Assembly: GCF_003334355.1 (NCBI RefSeq)
Contig: NZ_QOWP01000009.1
DNA length: 64,000 nucleotides
Reading direction: 5' to 3' (one strand)
Origin: Escherichia coli
GTDB lineage: Bacteria; Pseudomonadota; Gammaproteobacteria; Enterobacterales; Enterobacteriaceae
The notes beneath the pieces are model-generated. The model was not told the origin of the DNA and searched no databases. It saw nothing but the letters and a program-made list of their open reading frames with translations. A program made the position numbers and the translations under genes. This document shows positions 361-49,239 of this stretch, in pieces; positions within the stretch are counted from its first letter, which is position 1; each line of letters starts with the position of its first letter.

Positions 361-3164
<2,804 letters not shown>

Positions 3165-3168
<4 letters not shown>

Positions 3169-4109
3169 GCGTGCGCTCCTTCATGACGACGAATGCGCGG
3201 GTCCAGCGCGGCGTTGAGCAAATCGACAATCAAATTACAGACCACAAAAACCACCACCATCATCAGCGTAAAGCACTGGATCACCGGATAGTCACGGTTA
3301 AAAATCGCCGACACCGCATAGCGCCCGACGCCCGGCCAGGCAAAGATGTTTTCGATAATCATCGTCCCGCCAATCAGTTCGCCGATGTGCATCCCCACGG
3401 CGGTGATCATCGGCAGCGAGGCATTGCGCAGGATGTGGCGACGTTCGGTCTGTTTGTCGTTCAGGCCGCGCAGACGCGCCCAGGTGACGTGACGCTGACC
3501 GGCGACGTCCAGCATACTGGCGCGCAGTAAACGCGCGTTAATCGCCAGCGACATAAAGGCAATGGAAACCGCAGGCAAAATGATGTGCTGCCAGCCGCCG
3601 TAACCCATCGCGGGTAGCCATTGCAGATACACCGAAAACGCCATCACCAGTAAAAACGCCAGCCAGAAGTTAGGCATCGACACGCCAAGAAACGCGATGA
3701 AACGTACGGCGAAATCCGGCAGACGGTCGCGATGGCGCGCCGCCCAGATACCGAGCGGTACGGAAGTGAGCAGAATTAATACCAGCGCCGCACCTGCAAG
3801 TTCCAGCGTGGCGGGCAGGAAGTTCAGCATATCGTCCAGTACCGGGCGTTGGCTGGCGAATGAGATACCAAAGTCAAGATGCAGCGCCTTCCACAACCAG
3901 GTGCCGTACTGGACGTACAGCGGCTGATCCAGTCCCAGCATGGTGCGGGTAGAGGCCAGCATCTCCGGCGTCGGCGGCAGGTTAGACAGACGCAAATAAT
4001 CGAGCGCCGGGTCGCCGGTACCGAGGCGCAGCATCAGAAAAATGATCACCGAGGCGGCGAGCACCATCGGGATCAGCAGCAGAAAGCGGCGTAATACGTA
4101 ACGCAACAT
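3165..4109 (-). CDS. nikB: Nickel ABC transporter permease NikB
   Basis: 314 aa hydrophobic ORF; overlaps nikC by 4 bp. Confidence 0.92.
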
Positions 4110-5683
4110 TAAGGTTTCACCGGTTTAATCTGTTCGAACGGAATTTCGGTGGCGATCGGCGCGTAGGGGATGTTACCCAGCTCCGGTTTTGATACCACCA
4201 TCATTGAGATGTAACTGATAGGCAGATAAACCGCCTCGTCATGCAGACGGGTCAGAATGTCGCGATACAGCGCCTGATGTTGCGTTTCGTCATGGGTCGC
4301 CAGCACTTCGCCGATCTCTTTATCAATCAGCGGTTTGTCGGCTAATCCTTGCTGTGCCTGGAAGTCAGCGTGTGACGGTACGCGCATTGAACTGAGGAAG
4401 GCGTGTGGATCATATGGCGCGCCCCAGGTGCGGTGGAAAATCATGCCAAAACGACCGTCGCGCTGACGAGCATAGATACTGCTCTCTTCTTCGCCAATCA
4501 GCGAGACATCTGCGCCAATCTGGCGCATATCAGCCTGAATGATTTCCGCCATCGATTTGCTTAACGCATCGGTGCCGATGAACGACAGTTCAATGCGCAG
4601 CGGCTGACCATTTTTCTCGCGGATGTCTTTGCCCGCAGGCAGCGTCCAACCGGCTTTTTCCAGCAACGCTTTCGCTTTCTGCGGATCGTACTGGCGCGGT
4701 TTCAGGCCGAGGTTGGCGTAGGGCACAGAAGGGGCAAACAGGGTGTCGGCGACCTGCTGGGTGCCATACAACGCGTTATCAATCAGCGATTTTTTGTTTA
4801 CCGCGTAATTAAGAGCTTCACGTACTGCCAGCTCATTGGTGGGGGCTTTGGCGGTATTAAGCGCCAGCATCACGGTTTCGATCGGCTGTGACAGTTGGGT
4901 ATGGTAAGCCGGGTTCTGGCTAAAGCGGGCGAAGGTATCGAGCGGTAATAACCCTTCGTTTCCGTACAGCAGGTCGATATCGCCAGTTTCAAACGCCACC
5001 GCGCGGGTAGTCGGGTCCGGGATGACGTTAAAGGTGATCTTTTTAATCGCTGGCTTTTCGCCCCAGTAGTTTTCGTTACGGACGAAGACATCGTACTGAT
5101 TCAGTTTCGATTCCTGCAAAATCCACGGTCCGGTGCCAATCGGCGCTTTAATTCCGTTCATGGTTTCATGGTTTTTAAACTGCGAGGGGGCGATAAAGCG
5201 GAAAGGGCGCGGCAGGGCCAGTTCTTGCAGGAAAGGATAGTAGGCGCTTTTCAGGGTGATTTGCAGCTCTGTTTTACTGAGTGCTTTAACATCAACAATC
5301 TGGTTTGCCAGCTCCAGCCAGGCGTGACGTTGACGGTTATCGAGCACTGCGCGGAAGTTTTCTGCCGCCGCCTCGGCATCGAACGGTTCACCGTTGGAGA
5401 ATTTCACGTCATCACGCAGGGTGAAGGTCCAGGTTTTACCATCTTCTGAATGAGTCCAGCTTTTTGCCAGCCACGGGATCACCGAACCGTCTGCCTGATA
5501 TTTCACCAATGGTTCATAAACCATGCTCTGGGCGAACATCTGGTTAGGCGTGTAAAGGTGCGGGTTTAGTGGCCCGACATTCACCGGCCAGGCGGTGGTG
5601 ATTTCATCTGGTGCAGCGGCATGGACGATAAAAGACGCACAAGCCAGCAGCGCAAATAGAGTGCGGCGGAGTGTGGAGAGCAT
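4109..5683 (-). CDS. nikA: Periplasmic nickel-binding protein NikA
   Basis: 524 aa ORF with N-terminal signal peptide ([25 protein letters not shown]); family-5 solute-binding protein; first gene of the operon. Confidence 0.93.
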
Positions 5684-5720
5684 GGTAACCCCAATGGATT
5701 AAAATAGATGGCGGAAATAA

Positions 5721-5748
5721 GTATGACGATTTTAAGTATTCGTCATAC
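5721..5748. promoter_or_regulatory. NikR operator (GTATGA-N16-TCATAC) in the nikA promoter
   Basis: Exact GTATGA at 5721..5726 and TCATAC at 5743..5748 separated by 16 nt, 38-65 bp upstream of the nikA start codon; matches the established NikR operator architecture. Confidence 0.8.
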
Positions 5749-5793
5749 TGATTACCTGTTCTGGATCAATAGATGGGCAGTCGGGTGGGCGGA

Positions 5794-6381
5794 TCAGTTA
5801 ACTGAATCGATCCATTGCACACTCTCGGCGGTGAGCGTAAAGGGGGTGGGGGTGCAGATCGCAAGGCTTAAATTTTCTAGCTGACAATGGCTGACTGACA
5901 GCGAGGAGTGATAGGTGCTATCTACGCTGACGATTTGCCAGGCGCTGCCGCCACGCTGTTTAACGATGGCTTCTTTGCGCGTCCAGATGCGCCAGAACAT
6001 TTCCAGTTGCTGCTCAGGATGCACGGCGTCCATTTCAGCGTGTTCCCCGAGGCTGAACACGGCGTTCGCCAGCCAGCGCCAGTTGGCGCGCGGGCGAATC
6101 ACTTCGATATCGCAGCCGACTTCGCCTTCATCGCTCAACAGCAGAGCGATATCGTCACCGCTATGGCTTAAGTTGAACCATAGCGGCGTTTCCGGCGCGA
6201 ATGCAGGTTTGCCTTGTTCGCCATAGATGATCTCCGGTAGCGGGGAAAGCGTGTGCGAAAGCAATGCACGCCCCGCCAGCCAGCGTTCGCGTCGTGGACC
6301 TTGCGGTGCTTGCTCGCGTAAACCCGGTGGCAGTGGAGCTGCGCTTAAGGTCGAAACTTTCCCCAGAACTATCCGATACAT
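5794..6381 (-). CDS. acpT: Holo-ACP synthase 2 / 4'-phosphopantetheinyl transferase AcpT
   Basis: 195 aa ORF; position between nikA and yhhT; length matches AcpT. Confidence 0.88.
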   Translation of the reverse strand: MYRIVLGKVSTLSAAPLPPGLREQAPQGPRRERWLAGRALLSHTLSPLPEIIYGEQGKPAFAPETPLWFNLSHSGDDIALLLSDEGEVGCDIEVIRPRANWRWLANAVFSLGEHAEMDAVHPEQQLEMFWRIWTRKEAIVKQRGGSAWQIVSVDSTYHSSLSVSHCQLENLSLAICTPTPFTLTAESVQWIDSVN

Positions 6382-34604: not shown

Positions 34605-35053
34605 AATTATAATAAATATTATTGTTGAGTGTTATATTATTATTCCTGTGTGATACATTGAGCAAAGACGCGTTCATCTTCGTCAAAGATATTATTAAAT
34701 GCTGGTTTTGAAAAAAGTTCATCGGATAAGATATAGTCACGAAATAAGTATCTGCTAATATTTTATGATTTCTTTTTCAGAACGTCGAACGGGATTTTCT
34801 TATTTAAGATATCAGAATCTTATGATTCGGGTAAAATTCTAAATAAATCAACATGTCATTAAAATCATCATAGCCATTAGCTATTTCGACTAAAATAGAG
34901 ACTACATGTCTTCGGTCCATCTCACTTAAGGAGTGTAGTTCCGTTGTAAGTTTTTCCATAGCTTGCACTGCTAAATTTCGAACAAGGAATTTTCTGCTGG
35001 TAATCTCTAAAAAGATGGCATGGTTTACAATGATTTTTGTTTCCTTTTGATTA

Positions 35054-35548
35054 TTATGAACAACTGTCCATGATTTCGTTTAAGAATGAAGAGAAATCAC
35101 TAAACGAACTGAATATATTTTCTGTGCCGATATTATCTCTAATTTCAAAAAAGTTACTTTTAATGTCATAAGTAAATATTGAAATGCTATCATCCCCGAT
35201 CACTAACCGTTCTTGTAGATCAGGGTTTATGAAATCATCATTATTTCTATAAAATTCATTTACGGCAAAAAGGTTTTTAACTGAAGGTTCTGGAATCGAG
35301 AGGCTAAATAATCGTAATCCATTAACTTCGAATCCATCCATTGCTCTTAAAAAAGTAAGATAATCAGGTTGATTCTTAAAAAGAATACTAACTTCATTAC
35401 ATAACTTCTCCAGGCAATTAGTTGAATTAGAATTAAATTCTATTTGGATTATACTTTCAATAAATGATTCCTTGAGCGGTGCTTCAAATGGATAGTCTAA
35501 ATCATTCATCATTTTTATTAATTTATTTATTTGGGTTTTAGTCATCAT
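35054..35548 (-). CDS. yrhA: Putative immunity protein for the YhhZ nuclease toxin (intact YrhA-like, 164 aa)
   Basis: 164 aa acidic ORF immediately downstream of yhhZ with ATGA start/stop overlap (35545..35548); AT-rich; position matches yrhA. Immunity role is inferred from the gene arrangement. Confidence 0.7.
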   Translation of the reverse strand: MMTKTQINKLIKMMNDLDYPFEAPLKESFIESIIQIEFNSNSTNCLEKLCNEVSILFKNQPDYLTFLRAMDGFEVNGLRLFSLSIPEPSVKNLFAVNEFYRNNDDFINPDLQERLVIGDDSISIFTYDIKSNFFEIRDNIGTENIFSSFSDFSSFLNEIMDSCS

Positions 35549-40993: not shown

Positions 40994-41521
40994 TTGAGCA
41001 CGACTAACCATGATCACCACATTTACGTCTTGATGGGCGTATCGGGCAGCGGCAAATCTGCGGTCGCCAGTGAAGTGGCGCATCAACTTCATGCCGCGTT
41101 TCTTGATGGCGATTTCCTCCATCCACGGCGCAATATCGAAAAAATGGCGTCTGGCGAACCACTGAATGACGACGATCGCAAACCGTGGTTGCAGGCGCTG
41201 AACGACGCCGCGTTTGCTATGCAGCGCACTAATAAAGTGTCGCTGATCGTCTGTTCTGCATTGAAAAAACACTATCGCGACTTGCTGCGTGAAGGTAATC
41301 CGAATCTCTCTTTCATCTATTTGAAAGGCGATTTTGATGTGATTGAAAGCCGCCTGAAAGCGCGCAAAGGCCATTTCTTTAAAACCCAAATGTTGGTGAC
41401 GCAGTTTGAAACGCTGCAGGAGCCGGGTGCGGACGAAACCGATGTACTGGTGGTGGATATCGATCAACCGCTGGAAGGTGTTGTGGCAAGCACCATTGAG
41501 GTTATTAAAAAAGGCAAATAA
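40994..41521 (+). CDS. gntK: Thermoresistant gluconokinase GntK
   Basis: ORF track 40973..41521; protein matches the 175-aa GntK if started at in-frame TTG 40994 (STTNHDHHIYVLMGVSGSGKS, P-loop); ATG 40973 is an alternative start. Confidence 0.85.
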   Translation: MSTTNHDHHIYVLMGVSGSGKSAVASEVAHQLHAAFLDGDFLHPRRNIEKMASGEPLNDDDRKPWLQALNDAAFAMQRTNKVSLIVCSALKKHYRDLLREGNPNLSFIYLKGDFDVIESRLKARKGHFFKTQMLVTQFETLQEPGADETDVLVVDIDQPLEGVVASTIEVIKKGK

Positions 41522-47269: not shown

Positions 47270-49239
47270 CACAACTCGCCATTGGCAAACCCGCTCCCCT
47301 CGGCGCGCATTACGACGGTCAGGGCGTCAACTTCACACTTTTCTCCGTTCATGCCGAGCGGGTAGAACTGTGTGTCTTTGACGCCAATGGCCAGGAACAT
47401 CGCTATGACTTGCCAGGGCACAGTGGCGACATTTGGCACGGTTATCTGCCGGATGCGCGCCCGGGTTTGCGTTATGGTTATCGCGTTCATGGCCCCTGGC
47501 AACCCGCCGAGGGGCATCGCTTTAACCCGGCGAAGTTGTTGATTGATCCTTGCGCGCGGCAAATTGACGGGGAGTTTAAAGATAACCCGCTGCTGCACGC
47601 CGGTCATAATGAACCTGACTATCGCGACAACGCCGCCATTGCGCCGAAATGCGTAGTGGTGGTTGATCACTATGACTGGGAAGATGATGCCCCGCCGCGC
47701 ACGCCGTGGGGCAGCACCATCATTTATGAAGCCCATGTCAAAGGATTAACGTACTTGCACCCGGAGATCCCGGTCGAGATCCGTGGCACTTATAAAGCCC
47801 TCGGGCATCCGGTGATGATCAACTATTTGAAACAATTGGGCATTACCGCGCTGGAACTGCTGCCAGTGACGCAGTTTGCCAGTGAACCACGTCTGCAACG
47901 CATGGGGCTAAGTAACTACTGGGGTTACAACCCGGTGGCGATGTTTGCGCTGCATCCGGCGTATGCCTGCTCGCCAGAAACGGCGCTGGATGAGTTTCGC
48001 GATGCAATCAAAGCACTGCATAAAGCGGGTATCGAAGTCATTCTTGATATCGTGCTCAACCATAGTGCGGAACTGGACCTCGACGGCCCGTTATTCTCGC
48101 TGCGTGGGATCGATAACCGTAGCTATTATTGGATAAGAGAAGACGGCGATTATCACAACTGGACCGGTTGCGGCAACACGCTCAATTTGAGTCATCCGGC
48201 GGTGGTGGATTATGCCAGCGCCTGCCTGCGTTATTGGGTAGAAACCTGCCACGTCGATGGTTTCCGCTTTGATCTGGCGGCAGTCATGGGCCGTACGCCA
48301 GAGTTCCGTCAGGATGCGCCGTTGTTTACCGCTATCCAGAACTGCCCGGTGCTCTCGCAGGTGAAGTTAATTGCTGAACCGTGGGATATCGCTCCTGGTG
48401 GTTATCAGGTGGGAAATTTCCCGCCGCTGTTTGCCGAGTGGAACGATCATTTCCGCGATGCTGCCCGTCGTTTCTGGCTGCATTATGATTTGCCTCTGGG
48501 GGCGTTTGCCGGGCGTTTTGCTGCCTCCAGCGATGTTTTTAAACGTAATGGTCGTCTGCCGAGTGCCGCGATTAATCTCGTCACCGCACATGACGGTTTT
48601 ACGCTTCGCGACTGCGTTTGCTTCAACCATAAACACAATGAAGCAAACGGAGAAGAAAATCGCGACGGGACCAACAACAATTACAGTAACAATCATGGTA
48701 AAGAAGGGTTAGGCGGTACTCTTGATCTGGTTGAACGGCGGCGCGACAGCATTCATGCCCTGTTAACAACGTTGTTGCTCTCCCAGGGCACGCCGATGTT
48801 ACTGGCCGGTGACGAACATGGTCACAGCCAGCATGGCAATAACAATGCCTACTGTCAGGATAACCAATTAACCTGGTTGGACTGGTCGCAGGCAAGCAGT
48901 GGTTTAACCGCATTTACCGCCGCGTTAATCCATCTGCGCAAGCGTATTCCCGCTTTGGTGGAGAATCGCTGGTGGGAAGAAGGCGACGGCAATGTCCGTT
49001 GGCTAAATCGATATGCTCAACCTTTAAGCACGGATGAGTGGCAAAACGGGCCGAAACAGCTGCAAATTCTGCTCTCGGATCGCTTTTTGATCGCAATTAA
49101 CGCCACGCTTGAGGTAACAGAGATTGTTTTACCTGCTGGGGAGTGGCACGCCATTCCCCCATTCGCTGGAGAGGATAACCCAGTGATTACGGCTGTCTGG
49201 CAGGGACCTGCACACGGATTGTGTGTGTTCCAGAGATGA
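47266..49239 (+). CDS. glgX: Glycogen debranching enzyme GlgX
   Basis: 657 aa ORF; GH13; 4-bp overlap with glgB. Confidence 0.95.

Follow-up and report, generated by a model that had tools for sequence, protein, structure and literature searches.

The acpT–nikA intergenic region of Escherichia coli: a probable class II promoter activated by FNR and repressed by NikR

Gene organization, NikR operator and core promoter

The window analyzed here is a stretch of 64,000 nucleotides of Escherichia coli DNA, and a 301-bp query taken around acpT–nikA matches all of the 5426 complete E. coli genomes, with acpT and nikA annotated. On its minus strand lies the nikABCDER operon, whose first gene, nikA (4109..5683), encodes the periplasmic nickel-binding protein (open reading frame; NCBIfam TIGR02294 nickel_nikA, 838 bits; RefSeq annotation). 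It is followed on this strand by nikB, nikC, nikD, nikE and, as the last gene, nikR (361..762, minus strand; open reading frame; NCBIfam NF002815/TIGR02793 NikR equivalog, 235 bits), which encodes the cognate repressor. The upstream neighbour of nikA, in the same orientation, is acpT (5794..6381, minus strand; open reading frame; NCBIfam NF007676, 395 bits; RefSeq annotation), a 4'-phosphopantetheinyl transferase gene. The NikA, AcpT and NikR products all score above the NCBIfam curated cut-offs. The two genes acpT and nikA are separated by 110 bp (5684..5793), as in MG1655, and alignment with this reference revealed an identical intergenic region, with a few substitutions in acpT of the present strain and none in the control elements described below. 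A GGGG located 5 nt before the nikA ATG (5689..5692, minus strand) could serve as a Shine-Dalgarno-like sequence. A plus-strand open reading frame of 58 aa (5708..5884), overlapping the promoter and antisense to acpT, was taken as spurious, and an Rfam scan of 5400..6100 returned nothing at E ≤ 1.

The intergenic region contains an exact match to the published consensus of the NikR operator, GTATGA-N16-TCATAC (5721..5748), 37 bp upstream of the nikA ATG. It is the single copy of this motif in the window, none being expected or seen in shuffled sequences, and the original prediction had placed the operator at precisely these coordinates. Ni(II)-dependent binding of NikR has been published for exactly this operator sequence (summarized in PMC7055735), and the cognate nikR belongs to the same operon. 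For comparisons between genera, one genome per species was scanned with NikA, giving 80 loci, and the 71 Enterobacterales loci with the operator were anchored on it without gaps and dereplicated at 85% identity into 52 sequences. With two mismatches allowed, the operator is found just upstream of nikA in 71/71 of the Enterobacterales loci. In E. coli its dyad symmetry extends past the 6-bp half-sites, with 17-nt arms (5713-5729 and 5740-5756) complementary at 88%; symmetric A-rich and T-rich tracts flank the dyad across genera.

Within the spacer of the operator lies the -10 hexamer TAAAAT (5729..5734, minus strand), of which the pattern TAnAAT is invariant in the 52 dereplicated Enterobacterales promoters. 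The putative transcription start was positioned at the A in 5722 (minus strand), 7 nt downstream of this invariant hexamer and itself invariant among the aligned Enterobacterales promoters; literature searches for a published nikA start site gave nothing usable. Numbered from this putative start, the NikR operator extends from about -26 to +2 and would thus cover the start site. No consensus sigma70 -35/-10 pair was found in 5600..5950, and the hexamer located 17 bp upstream of the -10, AGGTAA, matches the -35 consensus at 2/6 positions. The absence of a -35 element is as expected for an activator-dependent promoter of class II.

The same few bases carry matches to another regulatory motif. 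NarL-dependent (nitrate) repression of nikA has been published (as cited from Rowe 2005), with no site identified, and a candidate heptamer of the NarL type, TACTTAT, was retrieved by motif scan at -1..+6 (5717..5723, minus strand). Between 5717 and 5779, five heptamers have at most one mismatch (one exact and four with one mismatch, including those at 5738..5732 and 5746..5752), against about 0.9 per 100 bp over the whole window, and 17/52 genera retain an exact TACYYMT at the downstream position. The heptamers of 5717..5752, which lie over the -10 and the NikR half-sites, could constitute an unmapped operator through which NarX/NarL represses nikABCDE, in addition to the regulation proposed below and not exclusive of it. 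Such a site would make nitrate and nickel signals converge on the same ~30 bp. Against this, exact heptamers occur in the window at chance frequency (24 for 26 expected), no 7-2-7 arrangement has fewer than four mismatches, and a dedicated PWM study reported no NarL site for nikA. In addition, the TAC of the heptamers coincides with the end of a NikR half-site, and the symmetric T-rich flanks fit an extended NikR dyad. A NarL operator at this position is considered unlikely and is retained as a candidate.

The FNR site and its conservation

Upstream of the NikR operator, the sequence TTGAT-CCAG-AACAG on the nikA strand (TTGATCCAGAACAG, 5756..5769) matches the FNR consensus TTGAT-N4-ATCAA at 8/10 positions, its promoter-distal half being perfect and its proximal half (AACAG instead of ATCAA) agreeing at 3/5. 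The original prediction had tentatively proposed an FNR element here, read on the other strand as CTGTT-CTGG-ATCAA, and its coordinates are exact. By itself, such a motif match is not above chance: 44 matches with two mismatches or fewer occur in the window for 30±5 expected, that is about one per 1.5 kb. The center of the 14-mer, 5762.5, would fall at -40.5, the published distance, from the start proposed at 5722 with the conserved -10 as guide. The chance of finding such a match within ±1 bp of the class II position is about 3×44/64000 = 0.002. It is also the only candidate with at most two mismatches in 5600..5900; the sole candidate with three mismatches (5695..5708) would need a start inside nikA to respect the -40.5 spacing.

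A genome-wide study of FNR (Myers 2013, PLoS Genet, PMC3688515) classified nikABCDE as directly activated by this regulator, on the basis of a ChIP-seq peak upstream of nikA retrieved by three peak callers and by ChIP-chip, and listed no earlier direct evidence for FNR binding at nikA. It reported that sigma70 occupancy and expression at nikABCDE are higher without O2 and that nikA mRNA in an fnr mutant falls to 0.03 of the wild type, a 33-fold loss. It attributed one FNR site to the operon, the best PWM match being at -40.5 from the start (PatSer ln(p) -9.55), with a peak center at 3,611,605 (Table 1) or about 3,611,593 (Table S5) in U00096.2 coordinates. In U00096.3, the MG1655 nikA gene starts at 3,613,667. 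With a U00096.2 to U00096.3 offset that we take to be 1977 bp, the peak centers correspond to ~5768 and ~5780 in the window, 6 and 18 bp from the center of the 14-mer. Since no other candidate with three mismatches or fewer fits, the published site at -40.5 should be the one at 5756..5769. The bases contacted by FNR are assigned from the PWM and the ChIP resolution and not from a footprint. A text search of the literature for the 14-mer itself returned no paper with that string.

The alignment of the 52 promoters, in which the gap between the 14-mer and the NikR operator is constantly 7 bp, displays a sharp footprint over this site. The bases of TTGATCC (5769..5763) are conserved in 100, 100, 98, 98, 98, 94 and 87% of the sequences, respectively, and in the proximal half-site the C at 5758 and the A at 5757 in 77 and 100%. 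Each column of TTGATCC and of the proximal CA holds about 1.2–2 bits. Columns further upstream stay below 0.6 bit, being scrambled because the upstream gene differs in most genera. Within the genus, the aligned Escherichia species and divergent E. coli show no substitution in the FNR 14-mer, in either NikR half-site or in the -10, those that occur being located in flanks and spacers. Outside the order, the nikA loci of Alphaproteobacteria and Halomonas keep the NikR operator, and their sequence at the place of the FNR site has 6–9 mismatches; the coupling to FNR therefore appears as a feature of Enterobacterales.

A chance resemblance of the 14-mer to the consensus, with FNR acting on nik indirectly or from another site, has in its favour the abundance of 8/10 matches in the window, the poor proximal half-site and the lack of a published footprint. 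It would nevertheless have to accommodate the ChIP-seq peak and the published -40.5 position, the lack of any other FNR candidate in the region, the low probability of a match at the class II position and the persistence of TTGATCC, almost without change and at a constant distance, in genera with unrelated flanks, and we regard it as very improbable. The site at 5756..5769 is thus the only one fitting the published position, it is near the ChIP peaks and it is conserved; the tentative assignment of the original prediction proved correct, and the published site does not map elsewhere, an outcome that would have spoken against it.

Several other properties of this segment were observed. The distal half-site together with the conserved C that follows it forms a GATC (Dam) site (5764-5767), kept in more than 90% of the aligned genera, and the CCAG spacer, with 0.8–1.6 bits, exceeds the conservation required of an N4 spacer. 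Matches to TTGAT-N4-ATCAA with one mismatch occur elsewhere in the window at 35047-35060, 41454-41467 and 49087-49100. The distal half (5762-5770) can also pair with 5806-5814 as a 9-nt inverted repeat; this repeat is short, imperfect, partly located in acpT coding sequence and based on a two-copy match, and was treated as due to chance.

Variants of the promoter region were noticed within Escherichia. In 111/5426 of the E. coli genomes, the 54-bp core promoter (5719-5772) has about three substitutions; in strain 1424KP, the one example read, none of the three falls within the FNR 14-mer, a NikR half-site or the -10. Two Escherichia genomes other than E. coli, those of Escherichia sp. MOD1-EC7003 and Escherichia sp. 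E1V33, have an insertion of a dispersed short repeat between the NikR operator, which it immediately follows, and the nikA ribosome-binding site. Its size is ~112 bp in the former (L004:1352-1482) and ~434 bp in the latter (L002:1030-1460). These repeats recur at a median of 5 and 3 megablast places per E. coli genome, respectively. The insertion of MOD1-EC7003 has an ERIC-like appearance, and the GTATGACGAGTAT at its end is similar to a NikR half-site; that of E1V33 contains repeats of the CCCTCTCCC/GGGAGAGGG type.

The palindrome at the end of acpT

A perfect 12-bp palindrome, TCAGTTAACTGA, is present in one copy at 5794..5805. The original prediction had counted it among the elements of the nikA control region; its perfection was correctly recognized, but its location was given as 5785..5796, 9 bp off, and the palindrome in fact runs past 5800, where that region had been made to end. 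Translation revealed that it consists of the last three codons of acpT, Ser-Val-Asn, and the TGA stop (TCA-GTT-AAC-TGA). Being coding sequence and stop codon, at chance frequency and not conserved, it has to be withdrawn from the control region. Dinucleotide shuffles yield 21.2±4.2 perfect 12-bp palindromes, against 19 in the window. The one at the end of acpT becomes TCGCTTAACTGA or TCGATTAACTGA (TCGC/TCGA) in some E. coli, in E. whittamii and in Escherichia sp. E1V33, changes which in acpT amount to a synonymous Ser codon and the replacement of Val by Leu or Ile. No counterpart was found in the aligned promoters of other genera, where the upstream gene differs and the corresponding columns contain at most 0.55 bit. 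This absence of conservation had been named in advance as an argument against a functional palindrome.

A function for this sequence, either as an operator for a dimeric regulator of nikA or as a terminator or processing signal ending acpT, could be suggested by the perfect symmetry of its 12 bp, located 25 bp from the FNR site on the upstream side, and by the surrounding 32-nt segment, identical in 5381/5426 E. coli genomes. The identity of this segment within the species is, however, not above that of the neighbouring DNA, and the coding origin of the palindrome, its chance frequency and its disruption within Escherichia also oppose such a role. Examined as an intrinsic terminator, the palindrome was rejected, no terminator-like site being present in the region, and as an RNA structure it folds no better than shuffled sequences (z = 0.04). 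The core of the trp operator is ACTAGTTAACTAGT. A TrpR-like operator was likewise rejected: only AGTTAACT is shared, the flanking CTAG being here TCAG/CTGA, and the sequence is not conserved. A functional palindrome is accordingly most improbable; TCAGTTAACTGA is an incidental by-product of the coding sequence and can be dropped from consideration.

A different palindrome was observed in other genera. In Citrobacter, Klebsiella, Enterobacter, Lelliottia and others, a co-directional gene of the LysR family takes the place of acpT upstream of nikA, and these genera share a conserved palindrome of the T-N11-A type near ATACGATTTTCGTAT, ~35 nt upstream of the FNR site (L009:~1380-1400, L058 and many other loci), which is absent from Escherichia. 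It could represent a further regulatory site in the genera with the LysR-family gene.

Regulation of the nik operon and comparison with related promoters

Taken together, these elements make it highly probable that the region 5684..5793 is the minus-strand promoter of nikABCDER, activated by FNR from a class II position and repressed by NikR. The gene context of the original prediction, a nikA control region in an operon activated by FNR and repressed by NikR, was right and agrees with the published promoter. The motif positions, gene identities, conservation and missing -35 were computed here; FNR occupancy and dependence, and the binding of Ni-NikR, come from the literature.

The following mode of operation can be proposed. 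Under anaerobiosis, a [4Fe-4S]-FNR dimer would bind the 14-mer (5769..5756) at -40.5, substitute for the missing -35 and, acting in the class II manner, recruit RNA polymerase; transcription would proceed from the -10 TAAAAT (5734..5729) and probably begin near 5722. Under nickel sufficiency, Ni-NikR, encoded at the end of the operon, would bind GTATGA-N16-TCATAC (5748..5721). Since the -10 and the putative start both lie within this dyad, NikR should block the polymerase, and we infer occlusion as the mechanism of repression. The presence of nikR on the same transcript would provide a feedback, and the palindrome at the end of the acpT frame would have no part in the regulation.

The operon would thus be gated by two signals, oxygen sensed by FNR and nickel sensed by NikR, so that nickel is imported when NiFe hydrogenases are made. 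This promoter is already known and well characterized. The present analysis brings a small addition, the footprint between genera, which locates the FNR site at 5756..5769 without recourse to the ChIP data and indicates that the geometry of the FNR site, the NikR operator and the -10 is fixed across Enterobacterales.

Compared with the known nikA promoter of E. coli, the region displays the same locus, operator sequence and FNR position, with no difference of substance. The class II FNR promoters of dmsA, narG, yfiD and pykA, with a site near -41.5, likewise combine a TTGAT-N4-ATCAA-like site, the lack of a usable -35 and anaerobic induction. The nikA promoter differs from them by an FNR site of which only the distal half follows the consensus and by the operator of a metal-sensor repressor located 7 bp downstream of this site. 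Regarding NikR, other enterobacterial boxes (GTATGAT-N13/14-ATCATAC) share the same dyad and spacing and also overlap the -10 of a nickel transporter operon; the E. coli box differs from this commoner form in that its seventh base is C instead of T (GTATGAC) and its dyad symmetry extends to 17 nt.
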